From the NCBI RefSeq assembly GCF_023229925.1, contig NZ_JALNYM010000004.1:79998-143997 (forward strand): a stretch of 64,000 bases of DNA, in the 5' to 3' direction. Origin of the DNA: Acidithiobacillus sp. GTDB lineage: Bacteria > Pseudomonadota > Gammaproteobacteria > Acidithiobacillales > Acidithiobacillaceae. Under the pieces are notes generated by a model, which had not been told where the DNA came from, searched no databases, and saw only the letters and a program-made list of their open reading frames with translations. Position 1 is the stretch's first letter. Each line of letters starts with the position of its first letter. The translations under genes were made by a program, and so were the position numbers. Below, piece by piece: positions 2,020 through 12,135 of the stretch.

Positions 2020-4836
2020 TCACAAATGCTCCAGTCGCTGTGCCTGTTCGCTGAGTTGTAGCAGGGCGGCGTCTATTTCGCGCAGACGCTCTTCTTCCTT
2101 GGCGACGACCTCGGCGGGGGCGCGGCTGCGGAAGCTTTCCTGGGCCAGCTTGGCGGCGGTTTTAGCGCGATCCTGCTCAAGACGTTGCTGTTCTTTCGCC
2201 AGACGGGCCTGCTCGGCCACCACGTCAATGACTCCGGCGAGGGGGACGAGGACGCGCAGATCCCCGACCAGTTGCAAGGCGGCGGGCGGCGCTTCTTCTG
2301 CGGTGCCCAGCCATTCCAGACTGGCGAGGCGACTGAGAGCGAAGAGCCAGGGAGCATATTGTTGCGCACGCTGGCGGTCGCTGGCATCGCCCCCCTGCAG
2401 CAGCAGCGGCAGTGCCTTGCTGGGCGCAATATCCATTTCACCACGCACCGAGCGGATGGCGCGGATGACCGCAATCAGCCATTCCGTATCGCCATCCGCC
2501 TGGACGTCGATACGGGAGAGGTCCGCCACCGGATAAGGGGCGAGGGCAATGCTGTCGCCTGCTTTGCCGATGATCGGGGCTATCCGTTGCCAGAGTTCCT
2601 CGGTGAGGAAAGGCATCACCGGATGCATCAGACGCAGGCCAGCCTCCAATACCCGCAGCAGGGTATTGCGGGTGCCGCACTGTTGCGCCGAGGTGAACGG
2701 GCTGTCACTGCGCAGGATCGGCTTGGTCAGCTCGATATACCAGTCGCAGTAGTCATTCCAGAAAAATTGGTACAGCGCATGGGCGGCGTCGGCAAAGCGA
2801 TACTGGTCGATGGCGCTGTTGACGGCCGCTTCGCAGTGCTGCAGACGACCGATAATCCAGCGTTCCGGCGCCAACAGTTCACGCTCGCCTTCCAGATCGG
2901 CCGGATTTTGTATCTGCATCAGGGCAAAACGCGAGGCGTTCCAGAGCTTGTTGCAGAAATTGCGATTTCCCTCCACCCGCTTGAGGTCAAACTTGATGTC
3001 GCGGCCCTGGGTGGCCAGGGCCGCGAAGGTGAAGCGCAGGGCGTCGGTGCCGAAGGCGGGAATGCCGTCGGCGAACTCTTTACGGGTGGCCTTTTCGATT
3101 TTGGCCGCCATCTGCGGTTGCATGAGGCCCTTGGTACGCTTGGCGACGAGGTCTTCCAGGCTGATCCCGTCGATGAGGTCGATGGGGTCGAGGACATTGC
3201 CCTTGGACTTGCTCATCTTCTGGCCCTCCGCATCGCGCACCAGACCGTGGACATAGACTTCATGGAAAGGCACGTCGTCCATGAAGCGCAGGCCCATCAT
3301 GATCATCCGCGCCACCCAGAAGAAAATGATGTCGAAGCCGGTGACCAGCACGCTGGTGGGGTAGAATTGGGCGAGATCCGGTGTTTTTTCCGGCCAGCCC
3401 AGGGTGGTGAAGGGCCACAGCGCCGAACTGAACCAGGTGTCGAGCACGTCCGGGTCGCGTTCCAGAACCACCGGCACGCCGTAATGGCGCGCGGCTTCCG
3501 CCTGTGCTTCCTCTTCATGACGGGCGACAAAGATTTTACCGTCGGGGCCGTACCAGGCGGGAATCTGGTGCCCCCACCAGAGCTGGCGGGAGATGCACCA
3601 GTCCTCGATGCGCTGCATCCAGTCGAAGTAGGTTTTGCTCCAGTTTTCCGGTACGAAGCGGATGCGGCCCTCTTCCACCGCGCGGATGGCGGGTTCGGCC
3701 AGTGGCGCGACCTTCACGTACCATTGATCGGTCAGGTAGGGCTCGATGACGGCCTGGGAGCGGTCGCCACGGGGCACCATGAGCTGGTGTTCGTCGGTGC
3801 GTTCCAGCAGATTTTCCGCTTCCAGCAGGGCCAGAATCTGCTTGCGGGCGGCATAACGGTCCAGTCCGCGCAGGGGCTCGGGAATCTCTCCGGCGACGAT
3901 GTTGTCGCCGAAGACTTCGATACGGTCCCGGATACGGGCATCGGGGGTAAAGACGTTGAGCAGGGCCAGACCGTGCCGCTGCCCCACCTGATAATCGTTG
4001 AAATCGTGGGCCGGGGTGATTTTGACGCAGCCCGAGCCGAATTCTGGTTCGACATAAGTGTCCGCGATGATGGGGATCTCGCGGTTCATGATCGGCAGGC
4101 GCAGGGTCTTGCCGATGAGGTCGGCGTAGCGCGGATCATCGGGGTGAACCGCCACCGCCACGTCGCCCAGCAGGGTTTCCGGGCGGGTGGTGGCGACCAC
4201 GAGGGCACCATTGCCGTCACTGAGGGGATAACGGATGTGCCAGAGGGCGCCTTGCTCCGCTTCGCTGACGACTTCCAGATCAGAAACAGCGGTGCGCAGG
4301 ACCGGGTCCCAGTTCACCAGCCGCTTGCCGCGATAAATCAGACCTTCGTCATGCAGGCGGACAAAGACCTCGGTGACGGCATGGGAAAGCCCGCTGTCCA
4401 GCGTAAAACGCTCGCGCGACCAGTCACAGGAGGCCCCCAACCGTCGCATTTGCCGGGTGATATGGCCGCCTGATTCCTGGCGCCACTGCCAGACCCGCTC
4501 CAGAAAGGCACCGCGGCCCATTTGGTGGCGGTCACCGCCTTCCTGCGCCAGTTGTCGTTCCACCAGCATCTGGGTGGCGATGCCCGCATGGTCGGTGCCC
4601 GGCTGCCAGAGGGTACGCTCGCCGCGCATCCGGTGGACGCGGGTGAGGATGTCCATCAGGGTATCCTGAAAGGCATGGCCCATGTGCAGGGTGCCGGTGA
4701 CGTTGGGTGGCGGCAGCATGATGCAGTAGGGCGCGCCGTCGCCTGCTGGTTGGAACAGGCCATGGGCCTCCCAGCGCACATAGCACTGGGTTTCGATTGC
4801 GGCGGGGGCGAAGGGGCGATCCAGGGTGTCAGTCAT
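2020..4836 (-). CDS. valS: Valine--tRNA ligase
   Basis: [13 protein letters not shown] (HIGH) and KMSKS motifs, C-terminal coiled coil, 938 aa. Confidence 0.98.
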
Positions 4837-4847
4837 AGTAGGGTACG

Positions 4848-5738
4848 TTACTCAATTTCCGAGGTGTTGATCTGGTCCAGACCGTCGTGCAGGACGCGCT
4901 GCAGTATTTCCGGAAGCGACTGGCGGATATCTCCAGCCAGGCCTTCGCGCAACTTGATGCCCTCCAGCGCAAGGGTTCGCATGATAGTCAGACTGACCTG
5001 CTCTTTCCAGACGGTTTGCAGGCGCTGTGTCACCAGATCTTCTATCTCATTGATGATTCGTCGTTCAACCTCCTGGAAAAGCAGATTCTCGAAGTCTTTG
5101 AGAAAGTCGAGATCTACGGGAGGTGGCGGGACGGTGGACTGAACAGGCTGGCGAGCATCGGCCATTGCGGCCCCTTGCATGGGCAGCGGTTCTGATGCAG
5201 CTGGAGGAACGGGGGCGGACTGTTCCAGTGCTATCGCATCGGCGATCTTCTCAGAAGTGGCCTCAATGGGTGAGGTCGCAACCGTGTCGTTCCCTGCAGT
5301 GGACTCGGCTGCTTCACGAATCCGCGCCAGGACTACATCCAGTTCATGCTTTTCAATATCTTTGTTGGCTGTGATGGGGGATGCGGCCGCAACCGTGTCC
5401 AGCCAGTGTGGCTCTGCTTGTGCGTATTCCGTATGCGCCGCCGCAGCACTTTTGGGCGCTGCGACCGTAGCCTCCTCCCAGCGCATCGAAAAAACGGCGG
5501 GACTCTCGGGCACCGCCACCGATTCGGGAGGGAGTGATGAGAGATGATCTGGCAACGCCTCTGCCGCCTCTGCTGCCGGATAGGTTATGGCTTCCGGCGT
5601 CGCGTCGTCCGTATGCCGCCAAAGTTGTGGCGGCAGTCCCTGACGCAAAAGGTGGGTGAGTAGCAATGGGCCGCCGCCATCATCGGCGTCCCTTTGCTCT
5701 TCAAGAACGGGTTCTTTACGTGTCGGTATGCTTGCCAT
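4848..5738 (-). CDS. Hypothetical Pro/Ala/acidic disordered protein with helical C-terminus (PopZ-like architecture, see findings)
   Basis: ORF fills the gap between holC and valS; likely start [12 protein letters not shown] at 5738 just after the holC stop. Confidence 0.75.
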
Positions 5739-5752
5739 GGGTGCGTCTCCAG

Positions 5753-6178
5753 TCAGGCTTCCAGGGGATGCACCTGCATGGTGTATCCCGCGTTCTTTAA
5801 TTGTTTGTATCGTTCTCTGGCGAGGCTGCGGGGCTGCTCTGCGACAGGAATGAAGTCGATGAGCCGTTCGCATGCAGGGACAGGTGTCGGCAATGCGTCC
5901 AGCCCGCAGAGCACCAAGGCCTTACTCTGTGGGGGCCAGGCGCCGCCATCATGGATGCGTATGGATTCTCCTGCACCCCGGACATGGGGCACGAAAGCAC
6001 CAGCCTGGAAAGTCCACAGAAGATCATCCATGATCTGCCCCATCTCTACATCCGGGCACAGGATATCTGCTTCTCCTACGACCTGCCAGACTTTGGCAAT
6101 TACCCGGCATATACCGCGCTGCTGCTCGTGCGGGGTGAGCAACGTCGGCGGCAACGCATAGAACGAGGCGATGGGCAA
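5753..6178 (-). CDS. holC: DNA polymerase III subunit chi
   Basis: MDDLLWTFQAGAFVPH and LARERYKQLKNAGY motifs; pepA-holC-valS context; TTG start. Confidence 0.9.
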   Translation of the reverse strand: MPIASFYALPPTLLTPHEQQRGICRVIAKVWQVVGEADILCPDVEMGQIMDDLLWTFQAGAFVPHVRGAGESIRIHDGGAWPPQSKALVLCGLDALPTPVPACERLIDFIPVAEQPRSLARERYKQLKNAGYTMQVHPLEA

Positions 6179-6190
6179 GCGGTGGTCCTC

Positions 6191-7693
6191 TCAAGCCAAC
6201 TGCCGCGCCCGTTGTAGCAAATACTCTACCAACAACGGCACCGGGCGGCCCGTCGCACCTTTGTTCTCGCCGCTCTTCCATGCTACCCCGGCAATATCGA
6301 GATGCGCCCAATGATAGTTTTCAGTGAAGCGTGAGAGAAAACAGGCGGCGGTGATAGTCCCTGCTGGTCGGCCACCGACGTTGGAGAGGTCAGCGAAGGG
6401 GCTCTTCAATTGCTCCTGATATTCGTCGAAGAGCGGCAGCTCCCAGGCCCGATCCATGTTTTCCTTGCCCGCAGCAATCAGTTCATGGACGAGTCCCTCA
6501 TGATTGCCGAGCACGGCCGCAGTCTGGTGCCCCAGAGCGATGACGCAGGCGCCGGTAAGGGTGGCGATATCGATCACTACGTCGGGTTCGAAGCGCTCAA
6601 CATAGGTTAAGGCGTCCGCGAGGATCAACCGTCCCTCGGCATCGGTGTTCACAATCTCCACGCTCAGGCCTTTCATGCTCTTATGGATGTCACCAGGCTT
6701 GGTGGCTTGCCCGTCGGGCAGATTTTCTGAAGCGGGTACCACGGTAATAACGTTCAGCGGGAGTTTAAGTTCCGCTGCCGCCTGAATAGCCGCCAACGCT
6801 GAAGCTCCGCCGCACATGTCATATTTCATCTCCTCCATCTTGTCAGCGGGCTTCAGGGAGATTCCACCGGCGTCAAAGGTGAGCCCCTTGCCGACCAGCA
6901 CGATCGGTGCCTGATCCTCGGCGCCACCCCAATATTCAAGAATGATCAGCCGGGGCGGCTGTCGGGATCCGTTGGCGACGCCGAGGAGCAAATGCATTCC
7001 CAGGGCTTCCATGGCGTCCGGACCGAGGATGGTGCTTTTGATGCCTAAACGCTGGGCCATGGCCTCCGCTTGCCCGGCGAGCCAGGCAGGAGTACAGACA
7101 TTTCCCGGCTCGTTGGCCATATCCTTGGCCCATGCGACGGCCCGTGCTGTCGCATGGGCTTCTGCTGCGGCACGCTGAACTTCTGCCAGTTCGGCCATGT
7201 TGCCTTCGGAAACGATGAGCTGCATGGCGCCAAAGGCCCGTTGCGGCTTATCTGCAGGCTTTTTATGCTGGTCAAAGTGGTAATCGACTTCCGCCATCGC
7301 CTGAACCAAAATTTTTGCGAGTGCAGGTGCGGAACGGCGGATCACCGGGGTGTCCAGCAGGTGTAAGCTGACGCGGCTGATGCGGGCATTCTGCAAAGCG
7401 TGCGCGGCGGCGAGTGCGGCTTTGCGAAATTGACTATCCTTGACCTTGCCATGGGTACCGAGGCCCAGGACAAGCACTCGCGCAGCGGCAATTTTCGGAA
7501 CCTGATAGAGCATCTGCGTCTCGCCACAGGCGCCGCTAAAATCTCCGGTATCGAGGAGGGCCTGGAGGGCGCCGCCACTGGCCAGATCAATCAGCGTGGC
7601 GGCGGGACTCAGCGTGCCGCCTTCATACACTCCGACGACTACACAGTCATTGTTGTCGGCGGTTGGGTTCTGGCACTGTACGGCTATCTCCAC
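6191..7693 (-). CDS. pepA: Leucyl aminopeptidase (M17)
   Basis: VGKGLTFDAGGISLK, MKYDMCG and NTDAEGRLILAD motifs; start placed at GTG 7693 behind AGGAGA. Confidence 0.96.
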   Translation of the reverse strand: MEIAVQCQNPTADNNDCVVVGVYEGGTLSPAATLIDLASGGALQALLDTGDFSGACGETQMLYQVPKIAAARVLVLGLGTHGKVKDSQFRKAALAAAHALQNARISRVSLHLLDTPVIRRSAPALAKILVQAMAEVDYHFDQHKKPADKPQRAFGAMQLIVSEGNMAELAEVQRAAAEAHATARAVAWAKDMANEPGNVCTPAWLAGQAEAMAQRLGIKSTILGPDAMEALGMHLLLGVANGSRQPPRLIILEYWGGAEDQAPIVLVGKGLTFDAGGISLKPADKMEEMKYDMCGGASALAAIQAAAELKLPLNVITVVPASENLPDGQATKPGDIHKSMKGLSVEIVNTDAEGRLILADALTYVERFEPDVVIDIATLTGACVIALGHQTAAVLGNHEGLVHELIAAGKENMDRAWELPLFDEYQEQLKSPFADLSNVGGRPAGTITAACFLSRFTENYHWAHLDIAGVAWKSGENKGATGRPVPLLVEYLLQRARQLA

Positions 7694-7808
7694 GGCGGTT
7701 CTCCTGATAATCTGTAAGCGAGGAATTCGAGATGACGTCAAAGATGGAAAATAAGCCCCAGAGGCACCGGGAATCAAGTCTTGTGAGTAATCTTCAGGGG
7801 TTGCCCGC

Positions 7809-8930
7809 TTGACGCGCATCCGTATGCAGCTCGTGCGAAATATCACGACCTCTTTTCTGCTGACCTGCCTGGTGGTGCTTGCCATCCTGGCTATCGGTCA
7901 GGCGACCCAATTGTTGAGGCAAGTCGCTTCCGGGCAGTTGCCGTTATCGATTGTACTACAGTTGCTCGGCCTGGCAGTACCTACACTGTTGGTCATGGTA
8001 TTGCCTCTGGCCTTTTTCTTCGCGGTTTATCTGGTGTTCAGCAATCTCTATCGTTCCAATGAGATGGTGGCCATTCGCAGTACCGGTACCGGGCTGTCGG
8101 GACTTCTGCCATCTGTTGCGGCGGTTGCGGCAGGTGTCTTTTGTCTGGAATTGTTATTGTCTCTTTCCTGGGCGCCCGGTGCGCAGCGTCAGTTACAATC
8201 CGACTCTGTGCGCCTGGCCAATGCCGCGGCCGAAGCTATGCTGCAGCCTGGCAGTTTCACGAATTTACCCGGCGGTCGGGTGATTTATGTGGGGCAGCCC
8301 GTGGGTAAAGACAGTCACCGCTTCCGCGAGATATTTTTGTCCATTGCCCAAGGTGATCAACTGGATTTGGCGACCGCGACTTACGGGGAGATCAAACCCC
8401 GTCAGGATGGCGCCCTGACGCTGGTGCTGGTGGATGGCCAACGTTATCTGGGACGGCCCGGGCAAAACGGGTTCAAAGTTCTTTCCTTCGCGCGCTATCG
8501 AGTGTTGCTGGGTAGCCCGGTCACCAGCGCTGCCCAGCCGGGCGGCATCAACTGGGGTAGCGTGTCTCTGTCTCAGCTTGGGCGTGACCTGCACGGCACC
8601 GAGATGCGCTTCGCCGTAACCGAACTGGAGTGGCGTCTGCTCTGGCCGCTCGCGCTGCCTCTATTGGCTTTGCTGGCTATCCCTCTGGCCTACAGCGAGC
8701 CCCGGGGGGGAGGGCGGGCGGCAGGCATGCTGGTAGGCATACTGTTTTTGCTGGCCATCAATAACATCGTTATTTATCTCAAAGAGCACATGATGAGTGG
8801 CAAGATGTCGGTTTTCCCCGGATTATTTTGGGTGCTCCTGCTGATTTTGGTGGTGGCCGCGTACACTTTTTTCAGGCGCAGTCGCGATCTGCCGATTTTA
8901 CCCGCCTGGCCGGGGCGGCGCGCATTATGA
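7809..8930 (+). CDS. lptF: LPS export ABC transporter permease LptF
   Basis: YjgP/Q architecture, YRSNEMVAIRSTG motif, divergent from pepA and paired with lptG. Confidence 0.88.
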   Translation: MTRIRMQLVRNITTSFLLTCLVVLAILAIGQATQLLRQVASGQLPLSIVLQLLGLAVPTLLVMVLPLAFFFAVYLVFSNLYRSNEMVAIRSTGTGLSGLLPSVAAVAAGVFCLELLLSLSWAPGAQRQLQSDSVRLANAAAEAMLQPGSFTNLPGGRVIYVGQPVGKDSHRFREIFLSIAQGDQLDLATATYGEIKPRQDGALTLVLVDGQRYLGRPGQNGFKVLSFARYRVLLGSPVTSAAQPGGINWGSVSLSQLGRDLHGTEMRFAVTELEWRLLWPLALPLLALLAIPLAYSEPRGGGRAAGMLVGILFLLAINNIVIYLKEHMMSGKMSVFPGLFWVLLLILVVAAYTFFRRSRDLPILPAWPGRRAL

Positions 8931-10000: not shown

Positions 10001-10131
10001 AGGTGGCATTTTGTGCTTCTTCGCTTAAAACAGGCTGCGTTGTAGTGATGCCGATGTATATTATAATGGTACGCTAGGCGTGGGCGATGGAGCGCGGTGC
10101 TGGATAGTTCCGCTATAGAATGGGGGATGCG

Positions 10132-12135
10132 ATGATGAAATTGCCCTTGCTGGTTGAACAGTTGCGTGAATATCACCAGCGGCGTCGCAATATTGCCAAA
10201 GCAGTCCATCAAATGGCGCAGCTTTCGGTGGAGCTCGAACTGTTGCCCAGTGGAACTATGCTGCGGATGGAGAATCTTTCGCAGGAAATCGCCCATGATC
10301 AACTGCGCATTTCCTTTTTCGGTGAGTTCGCCCGTGGCAAATCAGAGTTGATTAACGCATTGTTTTTTTCTGACTTGGGCGCGCGTTTAATGCCCTCCGG
10401 ACCTGGGCAGACGACCATGTGTCCTGTGGAAATTCGTCACTGTCATCTGGCCCCTTCTCTCCAGCTATTACCTATCCGCAGTTATACGCTCAGTGATTCT
10501 ATGGAAAAGCTGAAGCGATCCAGGGATCTTTGGTCTGTTTCTCCGCTCAATTCGGAGGATCACAATGCCTGTACGGAGAGTATGGCTCAGCTTACAGAAA
10601 CACTTTGTGTGACTTTGGAAGAGGCGCGCGGCTATGGCCTTTGCCCTCCATTGAAGGGAGCAGGCAATAGTGGGCGAATCAGTAATTGTCCCTCTTGTGG
10701 TGAGGGAAAAGTGCGTATTTCACGCTGGCGTTATGCGTTGCTGCAATGGGCGCACCCGGTGTTGGAAGCTGGGCTGGTGATTCTCGATACACCCGGTCTG
10801 AACTCCCTCGGCAGCGAGGCCGATCTGGGTCTGGAAGCCGCGCGCGAAGCCGATGCCCTGATTTTCGTGCTGAGTGCGGATACCGGGGTTACGCAAAGCG
10901 ATCTGGAGATCTGGGAGCAACTTCTTGGCCGTCGCGCCTTACAGAACCAGTTGGTGGTACTCAACAAAGTGGACATGCTTTGGGATGATCTGCGCGACAC
11001 CGATCAGGAAGCCGCGGCGATCCTCACTCAGCGGGAAATCACGGCGCAGCGACTGAATCTCAACTTGGATCAGGTGGTGGCGGCTTCGGCGCAGAAGGGC
11101 CTGTTGGGCCGTATCCGCAAGGATGAGGCGTTGTGCGCGCGAAGCGGTTTGGACCTTCTTGAAAAAGCCATCGGCGAAATTCTTATTCCGGGCAGGCGTA
11201 ACGCCATGCTCGAAAATGCCCATCGCCTGCTCAACCGGGTGGTGCTTGATCAAAGAGTGTTGCTGGATGAGCAGATTCAGAATCTGGCCGGGGAAATCGA
11301 AAGTATGGAACGCCTGCAGGCGCAAACGGGCGAGCAGTTGCCGCGCCTTTTGGATCGTCAGCAAAAACTGGTGCGGACTTTTGCCAGGGATCGTGATGCC
11401 TTTGGGGTGAAGGAAAAAGAATTTATAGATTCAGCGAATACCTGGCTGCTACAAGCGCTGTCCCTGGAGCGGTTCGACCAGATTATCGAATCCGCACGCG
11501 CCGAATTGCTGGCGGCGTGGACGACGGTAGGTATTTACGATCGCTTTTCGCAGTTTTTTGTCGAAACACTGGTGCAATTTGATGCCGCGCTTGAACGTGC
11601 GAATCGGCTTTCGGCACTGATGCTTGATGCCTATCGCGTTCTGGAGCAGCAATATGGGTTGCCGAAGCTCGATACCATCCCCTACGCTATTTTGCCGCGT
11701 CGGGCCGAGTTGCTGGCCATGATGGAGCGCTACGAACGATTTGGTAAGCGTCTGGAAATCGCAGCGACCACGCAAGGTGCGGTCGTGCGTAAGGCTTTTC
11801 TATCGCTCGCTAATCAGGTGCAGGATTTTGTCGAGGAAACCCGCCGCGAATTGCAGGCATGGGTCAAGGAGTTGCTCGAAATGATGAACCGACAGATGGA
11901 CTTGTATGCGTCTCAGTCTATGGAAAAACTCGAAGCGCTGGGATCCATTGTTGAATCATCGGCAAACATTCAGCCACGCATTCGTGTATTGAGCGAGCAC
12001 CGACAGAAGAAAACGAAACAACTTGAGACTCTGAATAATGCCTATGCCGGATTCGCAGACTTGTTTCAGATCGACACCGAGAACAATCTACCACAACAGT
12101 GCTCCATTATTCCTGGTCATAATCCGGCTGGCTAA
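10132..12135 (+). CDS. Bacterial dynamin-like GTPase
   Basis: G1 GEFARGKS, G2 PGQTT, G3 DTPG, G4 NKVD, followed by a long helical stalk; start uncertain (10120-10135). Confidence 0.85.
   Translation: MMKLPLLVEQLREYHQRRRNIAKAVHQMAQLSVELELLPSGTMLRMENLSQEIAHDQLRISFFGEFARGKSELINALFFSDLGARLMPSGPGQTTMCPVEIRHCHLAPSLQLLPIRSYTLSDSMEKLKRSRDLWSVSPLNSEDHNACTESMAQLTETLCVTLEEARGYGLCPPLKGAGNSGRISNCPSCGEGKVRISRWRYALLQWAHPVLEAGLVILDTPGLNSLGSEADLGLEAAREADALIFVLSADTGVTQSDLEIWEQLLGRRALQNQLVVLNKVDMLWDDLRDTDQEAAAILTQREITAQRLNLNLDQVVAASAQKGLLGRIRKDEALCARSGLDLLEKAIGEILIPGRRNAMLENAHRLLNRVVLDQRVLLDEQIQNLAGEIESMERLQAQTGEQLPRLLDRQQKLVRTFARDRDAFGVKEKEFIDSANTWLLQALSLERFDQIIESARAELLAAWTTVGIYDRFSQFFVETLVQFDAALERANRLSALMLDAYRVLEQQYGLPKLDTIPYAILPRRAELLAMMERYERFGKRLEIAATTQGAVVRKAFLSLANQVQDFVEETRRELQAWVKELLEMMNRQMDLYASQSMEKLEALGSIVESSANIQPRIRVLSEHRQKKTKQLETLNNAYAGFADLFQIDTENNLPQQCSIIPGHNPAG

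Follow-up and report, generated by a model that had tools for sequence, protein, structure and literature searches.

PopZ is the model condensate-forming organiser of the bacterial cell pole and is regarded as an invention of the Alphaproteobacteria. Its first helix, H1, binds client proteins, its C-terminal helices assemble into multimers, and a linker of proline, glutamate and aspartate keeps the two apart (PMC5686542; PMC5182065). The C-terminus comprises three short helices, H2 to H4, and the popZ gene lies just upstream of valS (PMC5686542). Here we describe a gene that occupies the same position beside valS in a gammaproteobacterium, Acidithiobacillus sp. (assembly GCF_023229925.1, contig NZ_JALNYM010000004.1, forward-strand positions 79,998 to 143,997). 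This whole stretch of 64,000 nucleotides is referred to as the window, and positions within it are counted from its first letter. The gene, which we call X, lies between holC and valS and encodes an acidic protein of 296 residues, which an earlier note, made from the DNA letters alone, had singled out as a candidate PopZ-like scaffold. Our analysis points to X being a new form, enlarged and diverged, of a family without previous description, namely the proteins encoded directly after holC in many Gammaproteobacteria (termed the post-holC family below), which resemble PopZ and are possibly its relatives. The reading that we favour, and to which we would give an even chance, is that X is the Acidithiobacillaceae form of this unnamed and fast-evolving family, likely distant kin of PopZ, and acts as a scaffold.

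X is a real and constrained gene. A profile search of whole genomes recovered one copy each from 36 of 37 Acidithiobacillaceae genomes spanning four genera, both termini are invariant in an alignment of 21 members, and the linker between them varies in length while keeping the reading frame. A spurious open reading frame (ORF) is ruled out by this conservation, and a longer product of 341 residues starting at 5873 was also rejected, as the homologues share the methionine at 5738 and the extension overlaps holC. X falls outside all described families. The profile gave no match in the two sister-family genomes of the same order. A word-indexed search of 5.8 billion proteins returned 45 homologue clusters, in which the named matches are all from Acidithiobacillus and no functional annotation is present, and a HMMER profile search of 1.84 billion representative proteins returned 18 clusters only, all of X's own family. 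Neither Pfam nor NCBIfam matched X or three pieces of it at E ≤ 10. A search of PDB sequences with the X-family profile gave only a chance ribosomal match (E 0.43), and Foldseek comparison of the AlphaFold2 (AF2) model of X with the PDB gave no match under E 5, which is unsurprising for a lone helix.

The anatomy of the protein was taken from the 21-member alignment and from an AF2 run that used this alignment (Table 1). X as a whole has a pI of 4.5 and a net charge of -27. At the N-terminus RKEPVLEE is followed by a short acidic gap and then by PLLLTxLVREGLPPxLWR, and 14 residues in this region are invariant (R7, E9, P10, P24, L25, L27, R32, G34, L35, P36, P37, L39, W40 and R41). The AF2 confidence score (pLDDT) is below 50 at residues 1-120 and 150-200. 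A motif that is conserved yet disordered carries the signature of a binding motif, and the N-terminal region is likely a linear motif that binds a partner. The two linkers of X contain 12-16% aspartate plus glutamate, and the first cannot be aligned across the family. Family-wide the linker spans 65-230 residues with 10-20% proline, 10-23% alanine and 14-24% aspartate plus glutamate, basic residues are scarce, and the net charge ranges from -8 to -39. The internal helix that interrupts it in X follows the pattern E.EL..AL.R.R and is missing in seven of the 21 aligned members (P0007, P0009, P0011, P0012, P0030, P0034 and P0039). The C-terminal domain is modelled as one uninterrupted helix of 86 residues (210-295, pLDDT above 90) and has 37 invariant columns among its 88 residues. 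The hydrophobic stripe along this helix has a period of 3.8-3.9 residues, not 3.5-3.6. The domain is likely a self-association module. Alignment, composition and AF2 thus bear out the earlier picture of a disordered, acidic, proline-rich body with conserved ends and a helical C-terminus, and the helices quoted from the 296-residue ORF are present at residues 131-145, 232-248 and 270-290.

The interval between holC and valS was then surveyed in a class sample of 201 genomes, one per family, with Gammaproteobacteria used in the GTDB sense, which includes the Burkholderiales. holC is present in 165 of these genomes, and among 100 regions taken downstream of holC, valS follows on the same strand in 86. 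Of the 86 loci, 32 have the two genes abutting and 36 have an acidic ORF in the interval (median 125 residues, range 74-598, median pI 4.6). E. coli carries no gene in this interval. The motif [DE]-I-P-V-L-x-[DE]-V-V-x-P-G, or IPVLxEVVxPG type, occurs in 29 of the 36 post-holC proteins, approximately ten have an N-terminal helix of the LLDALESIKxLL type, and most have C-terminal amphipathic helices with an L-P-x-[LI]-[LI] ending. The earlier note had envisaged a system special to Acidithiobacillus-like bacteria; the synteny survey argues against this, and X would instead be the local form of a family found across the Gammaproteobacteria. No publication on a protein from the holC-valS interval came to light.

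Among Pfam families DUF2486 was matched most often, weakly, by four of 28 post-holC proteins scanned (E ≤ 10). One match that was inspected spans the N-terminal 39 positions of the model, where the IPVL-type motif lies. The DUF2486 model (PF10667) is too narrow to define the family, because it gave no match reaching its cut-off in the 201 class genomes. X, for which a relation to DUF2486 had been considered, does not match it at E ≤ 10, and there is no match in its whole genome; in the literature DUF2486 is mentioned in one unrelated paper only. The sister family of the Acidithiobacillaceae provides two further loci. In one genome (L052:836-1480, minus strand) the slot holds an acidic protein of 215 residues containing GLPPPLRLTDVVRENPP, a proline-rich linker and helices ending MRAELPQELHQCLVEEF, for which the only relative found was one near-identical match. 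In the other (L053, G037:C10, between 1312 and 1480) 167 nt separate holC from valS with no gene in the gap, showing that the gene can be lost.

Membership of X in the post-holC family was assessed with three alignments, of the X family (A1), of 18 PopZ proteins from loci found with PF10691 (A2) and of 28 post-holC proteins (A3), and with reversed sequences or profiles as controls for both hhalign and hidden Markov model (HMM) tests. Across the C-terminal helices A1 and A3 align with an hhalign score of 35.6 (P 4.8e-5), compared to 18.4-18.5 for the reversed controls. The C-terminal modules alone give 31.1 (P 9e-6; controls 17-18), and including the sister-family protein raises this to 34.3 (controls 17-19). 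That protein scores 39.1 against the X C-terminal domain (control 28.9), and its PPPLRLTDVVREN stretch (LTDVVRE) pairs with PLLLTxLVREG of X as an intermediate form of the motif. An ungapped HMM of the family's terminal LP module, named after its leucine-proline pair, ranked X second among 20,238 six-frame ORFs of its own genome and gave the 21 X-family members 12.95 bits forward versus 0.98 reversed. In the opposite direction, the HMM of the X C-terminal domain scored higher forward than reversed on 26 of 35 post-holC proteins (P 0.008). The same held for the HMM of the X LP module (P 0.0016) and, in 17 of 26 proteins, for that of the N-terminal motif (P 0.011), which bears a weak resemblance to IPVLxEVVxPG. 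The IPVL-motif HMM itself gives X at most 2 bits, the motif region of X reading EPVLEE, and X was not among the 59 ORFs of its genome reported at E ≤ 100.

Several observations count against this assignment. The X-family HMM, run on the 201 class genomes at E ≤ 1, gave six chance matches, none of them after holC, and the A3 HMM run on X's own genome missed X, the top match lying elsewhere (E 0.46). Post-holC proteins made up 7 of the best 10 and 13 of the best 20 matches of the X C-terminal HMM, against 5 of 10 and 9 of 20 for the reversed HMM, and a further profile test placed 15 of them in the top 25 forward and 11 reversed. Since reversed profiles also enrich for these proteins, a large share of the weak signals comes from the composition that acidic amphipathic helices have in common, and not from residue order. 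Enrichment tests with P values down to 1e-42 were discounted as evidence of homology for the same reason, as reversed profiles largely reproduce them. Over all runs the reversed-control hhalign scores reach 31, so that scores of 35-39 stand only about 2-3 standard deviations above this null. Judged by sequence, the post-holC-like proteins including X share an unusual composition and helix type together with a modest order-specific signal. Mainly because independent lines agree, we consider it very probable that X belongs to the post-holC family.

A direct comparison of X with PopZ gave a different result. PF10691 (PopZ, DUF2497) matched neither X nor its pieces at E ≤ 10 and had no match in the whole genome, while the Caulobacter control was positive. 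Within the phylum sample this model matches 74 of 301 genomes, none of them among the sampled genomes of X's class. The profile comparisons likewise showed no direct similarity to PopZ. A1 against A2 scored 16.2 in hhalign, under the reversed controls of 25-27, and the paired forward and reverse HMM test of X against PopZ gave P 0.31. The C-terminal helices of X, in which a profile match to PopZ had been anticipated, reached 17.7 on their own, below controls of 23-24. The internal helix had been read as a displaced H1, but HMMs of H1 (MEEILASIRRII type) gave it at most 2 bits, not above the reversed controls, and it is absent from a third of the aligned members. X has no H1-type helix at its N-terminus either, where a different, disordered motif is found. 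The internal helix was no better matched to the N-terminal helix of post-holC proteins (at most 2 bits, again not above reversed controls). Even so, all local alignments between X and PopZ land on X residues 264-290 and the PopZ stretch ...WLDxNLPxLVERLV....

In gene order the resemblance is closer on one side than on the other. As the earlier note had stated, popZ is usually the gene preceding valS: in our sample valS directly follows popZ in 25 of 30 alphaproteobacterial loci, as also described previously (PMC5686542). holC was found beside popZ in none of the 30 loci within approximately 1.5 kb on either side. We also observed that the PopZ proteins in A2 (loci L002-L030) have a conserved [DE][DE]VL[ED]LT[DE] motif shortly after H1, which in L030 reads DDVLLLTDLI. 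This VL-LT motif resembles the IPVLTDVV hallmark of the post-holC family.

A connection to PopZ was observed inside the holC-valS slot itself. Searching the 201 class genomes with PF10691 (E ≤ 1 per genome) gave 46 matches, of which the best, sixth and seventh fall in the gene right after holC, compared to approximately 0.01 expected from gene length and genome size. The best match (22.7 bits, E 2.5e-4) is a protein of genome G192 (Table 1) with the order ...ISMDEILTSLRSILEED...EELLLTEVVEE...long acidic proline linker...LEPMIRETLEGYLQQRLPELLRELAEAEIERIKRGE. By its sequence this protein comprises a PopZ H1, a VL-LT-D motif (DVLELTD in PopZ) and a PopZ C-terminus. Together with six relatives it makes up a set of proteins of 255-319 residues (P0053-P0059), which we call bridge proteins and which carry SMDEILTSLRSIL, EELLLTDVVEPG and the ending ...RLPxLLxELAEAEIERIKRG. 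One of the relatives is named 'cell pole-organizing protein PopZ' by JGI. The bridge proteins align to the PopZ profile with a score of 85.5 (P 3e-12; controls 13-16). Their gene context is lptGF<>pepA-holC-_-valS-nadC (loci including L157 and L158), the gammaproteobacterial context of X, which speaks against their having been acquired recently along with flanking alphaproteobacterial genes. The X C-terminal domain aligns to the bridge proteins in the LP register with a score of 27.0 (P 1e-4; controls 14-17), residues 257-290 of X pairing with bridge ALEP-MIRETLEGYLQQRLPELLRELAEAEIERI at 39% identity over 33 columns.

Other comparisons within the slot are less favourable to this connection. 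The whole alignment of X against the bridge proteins is not above controls (24.7 versus 23.2), typical post-holC C-terminal modules score 25.1 against them (controls 23.6-24.3), and the count of post-holC proteins among the PF10691 matches shares the composition caveat of the enrichment tests. The X N-terminal motif against bridge EELVLTDVVEE is likewise not above controls (24.1). Against PopZ and bridge proteins combined, typical post-holC C-terminal modules are slightly above controls (22.5; controls 15-17). An iterated search from the PopZ C-terminal domain, run with decoys, stops once the bridge proteins are taken in; the converged HMM places six post-holC proteins above all 20,238 decoys, and its reversed form places three before the first decoy. 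We found no paper describing PopZ relatives in Gammaproteobacteria. The PopZ connection of X is nevertheless plausible, because a sub-lineage in the same slot is PopZ-like at both ends and the LP helix of X falls in register with it. The proposal of the earlier note that X is a divergent homologue or analogue of PopZ is partly supported in this indirect form, whereas a direct profile similarity between the two proteins (16.2 against controls of 25-27) is not.

The post-holC family is most likely a distant relative of PopZ, because layout, acidity and position beside valS match and because of the PopZ-like sub-lineage in the same slot. From the sequences, we would give equal odds for and against its descent from a PopZ-like ancestor. 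A family member would consist of one or two short N-terminal linear motifs, typically [DE]IPVLxEVVxPG and in X the RKEPVLEE and PLLLTxLVREGLPPxLWR blocks, an acidic proline- and alanine-rich spacer that diverges in length and sequence but retains its composition, and C-terminal amphipathic helices ending L-P-x-[IL]-[IL]. In X the C-terminal part appears to have expanded into the single 86-residue helix, with an optional extra helix in the spacer. By analogy with PopZ, we infer a scaffold mechanism in which X, presumably co-transcribed with holC and valS, would self-associate into oligomers through its C-terminal helix. Conservation extends over the polar as well as the hydrophobic face of this helix, pointing to a specific oligomer and possibly to a surface for a partner. 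The disordered N-terminal motif would bind or recruit partner proteins, and the acidic spacer would separate the two ends and keep the assembly hydrated, extended, and soluble or fluid. The parts together may form a multivalent hub, possibly polar or condensate-like. A more far-reaching version is that the post-holC proteins, X included, are long-missed PopZ orthologues outside the Alphaproteobacteria, derived from an ancestral proteobacterial, valS-linked, self-assembling acidic scaffold, with X as a polar or condensate-like hub that recruits clients through PVLEE/PLLLTxLVREGLPPxLWR. We hold this version to be possible and rather doubtful.

The main rival reading, suggested by the gene order, is a different function, at the replisome. 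X and the post-holC family could be partners of chi (HolC) or of the clamp loader and not pole organisers, with the acidic IPVL segment behaving like the tail of SSB, or with the protein standing in for psi, in a 1:1 complex with HolC. X starts 14 nt past the holC stop codon with no terminator between the genes, the slot right after holC is kept across many families, and psi (PF03603) is not detectable in X's genome. In the psi-positive genomes the loci (L104, L147, L093, L065 and L058) all have holC and valS abutting, so the slot gene is present in 0 of 5 compared to 36 of 81. However, the contrast falls short of significance (Fisher P 0.07) and tracks phylogeny. As psi is detected by PF03603 in just 11 of 201 genomes, a missing match carries little weight. 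PF03603 is also missing from the 25 Pfam families, out of 55, that are listed for 28 members of the post-holC family (E ≤ 10). IPVL motifs preceded by acidic residues (DDDIPVL, NDNDIPVL) appear to resemble DDDIPF, the acidic C-terminal tail of SSB to which chi binds. Binding of the SSB tail requires a free C-terminal carboxylate, which an internal motif does not offer, and the motif of X is degenerate and without the usual preceding acidic run. The neighbour shared across classes is valS, because popZ adjoins valS but not holC in the 30 loci. On balance we think a partnership with chi unlikely.

Alternatively X could be a lineage-restricted orphan that happens to lie between holC and valS. Its similarity to PopZ and the post-holC proteins would then be a convergence of composition, and its function would be unrelated or the protein dispensable. 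The confinement of HMMER matches to 18 clusters of one family among 1.84 billion representatives would fit, as would the absence of HMMER matches linking X to post-holC proteins, the reproduction of much of the enrichment by reversed profiles, and the absence of a gene from one sister-family genome (167 nt) and from 32 of 86 loci. Convergence of composition does not account easily for direction-specific signals in three separate modules (P 0.008, 0.0016 and 0.011), for the module HMM scores of 12.95 versus 0.98 bits with X second of 20,238 ORFs, or for the same order of elements with one LP register running through X, the sister family, post-holC proteins, bridge proteins and PopZ. The 37 C-terminal columns and 14 N-terminal residues that are near-invariant over four genera indicate a selected, specific function, and we regard the orphan explanation as quite unlikely. 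At the other extreme, X could be a true functional orthologue of PopZ that forms a polar microdomain anchoring the ParB/ParA segregation machinery and signalling proteins, as in Caulobacter. Slot, architecture and the bridge sub-lineage with its PopZ-like H1 and C-terminal domain are in its favour. Yet in PopZ it is the N-terminal H1 that binds ParA, ParB and other clients, and X has no such client-binding helix, its N-terminal motif being different. There is also no direct sequence similarity, and the single 86-residue C-terminal helix of X differs from the three short helices of PopZ (PMC5686542). Functional orthology in this strict sense appears improbable.

If the post-holC proteins are relatives of PopZ, a PopZ-type scaffold would be present in a very large share of Gammaproteobacteria and Burkholderiales, among them well-studied species of the laboratory, and would provide a new and directly testable candidate for polar or subcellular organisation in these bacteria. 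X is the most elaborated form of the family seen here and is well suited to asking which features of the scaffold are essential, such as the N-terminal motif and the long invariant helix. Should the family instead work with chi at the replisome, this would also be new; to our knowledge, little has been established about the proteins that chi works with outside Escherichia-like bacteria.

The features of the locus are collected in Table 1. The start codon of X is the ATG at 5738, downstream of the holC TGA. As the earlier note had described, X lies immediately 5' of valS and is co-oriented with it, with 11 nt between the X TAA and the valS ATG, both on the minus strand. pepA and holC are 12 nt apart, the true start of pepA is probably internal to its ORF, and lptF/lptG are divergent on the opposite strand. 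A scan of the window sequence gave no terminator-like hairpin on the minus strand among holC, X and valS. A sigma-70-like match (9/12) lies at 4981-5009 on the minus strand, within the 3' part of X and upstream of valS; such matches in the region are at chance level (two found, 1.8 expected). By eye, the minus-strand ORFs 3' of valS are an NhaA-type Na+/H+ antiporter (652-2001) and a nadC-like gene cut by the window edge (2-655). In the bridge locus L157 nadC directly follows valS. Further along, a plus-strand ORF of 671 residues (10120-12135) has a P-loop-like GEFARGKSELINAL motif and a long helical tail, and resembles a dynamin-like GTPase by appearance.

Table 1. Features of the X locus and protein in window coordinates, with the G192 bridge gene in the coordinates of its own locus.
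Feature	Position	Strand	Remarks
Gene X, acidic protein of 296 residues	4848..5738	-	Stop codon included; ORF and translation
N-terminal conserved disordered motif, residues 1-41	5616..5738	-	RKEPVLEE at 7-14, second block at 24-41
Acidic Pro/Ala-rich disordered linker 1, residues 42-123	5370..5615	-	12% Pro, 26% Ala, net charge -11
Internal amphipathic helix, residues 124-148	5295..5369	-	AF2 helix, pLDDT 59-87; optional in the family
Acidic Pro/Ala-rich disordered linker 2, residues 149-208	5115..5294	-	18% Pro, 20% Ala, net charge -5
C-terminal domain, residues 209-296	4851..5114	-	Single long helix, nearly invariant
Terminal LP helix segment, residues 257-290	4869..4970	-	Aligns with post-holC family and bridge proteins; in register with PopZ ...WLDxNLPxLVERLV
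GGAG ribosome-binding site of X	5747..5750	-	8 nt before the ATG, 2 nt past the holC stop codon; read from sequence
holC (DNA polymerase III chi), upstream neighbour	5753..6178	-	PF04364, E 8.8e-25
valS (valyl-tRNA synthetase), downstream neighbour	2020..4836	-	PF00133, PF08264, PF10458
pepA (leucyl aminopeptidase M17)	6191..7885	-	Heads the co-oriented row; PF00883, PF02789
G192 bridge protein, 319 residues, between holC and valS	L155:603-1559 (G192:C10)	+	PF10691 22.7 bits, cut-off 27 bits

Compared to PopZ, X shares a very acidic character (median pI 4.4 for PopZ, 4.5 for X), conserved ends joined by a disordered linker rich in proline and acidic residues and variable in length, a helical C-terminal module with an L-P-x-hydrophobic-hydrophobic motif, and a gene immediately upstream of valS and co-oriented with it. 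X differs in that there is no significant similarity of sequence or profile, the N-terminus is the disordered PVLEE/PLLLTxLVREGLPPxLWR motif instead of H1, the C-terminal domain is one 86-residue helix with an insert of approximately 25 residues relative to the PopZ register, and holC, which does not adjoin popZ, lies 5' of X. In contrast to typical members of the post-holC family X is two to three times longer than the median (296 versus 125 residues), its IPVL motif has degenerated and seems to be present twice, it has the extra internal helix and a much longer and far more conserved C-terminal helix, and HMMER makes no connection. It has in common with them the pepA-holC-_-valS slot, an acidic and largely disordered protein in which a short hydrophobic N-terminal motif is followed by glycine or proline, and C-terminal amphipathic helices ending LPxLL, the C-terminal modules having profiles that are alike above reversed controls. 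The bridge proteins have an N-terminal PopZ H1 (SMDEILTSLRSIL) and the ending AEAEIERIKRG, neither of which is found in X. They resemble X in gene context, in length and in their long acidic proline-rich linker; their LLLTDVVE[EP]G is comparable to PLLLTxLVREG of X, and their C-terminal stretch KIREALEGYLSERLPALLRELA to the LP stretch of X.

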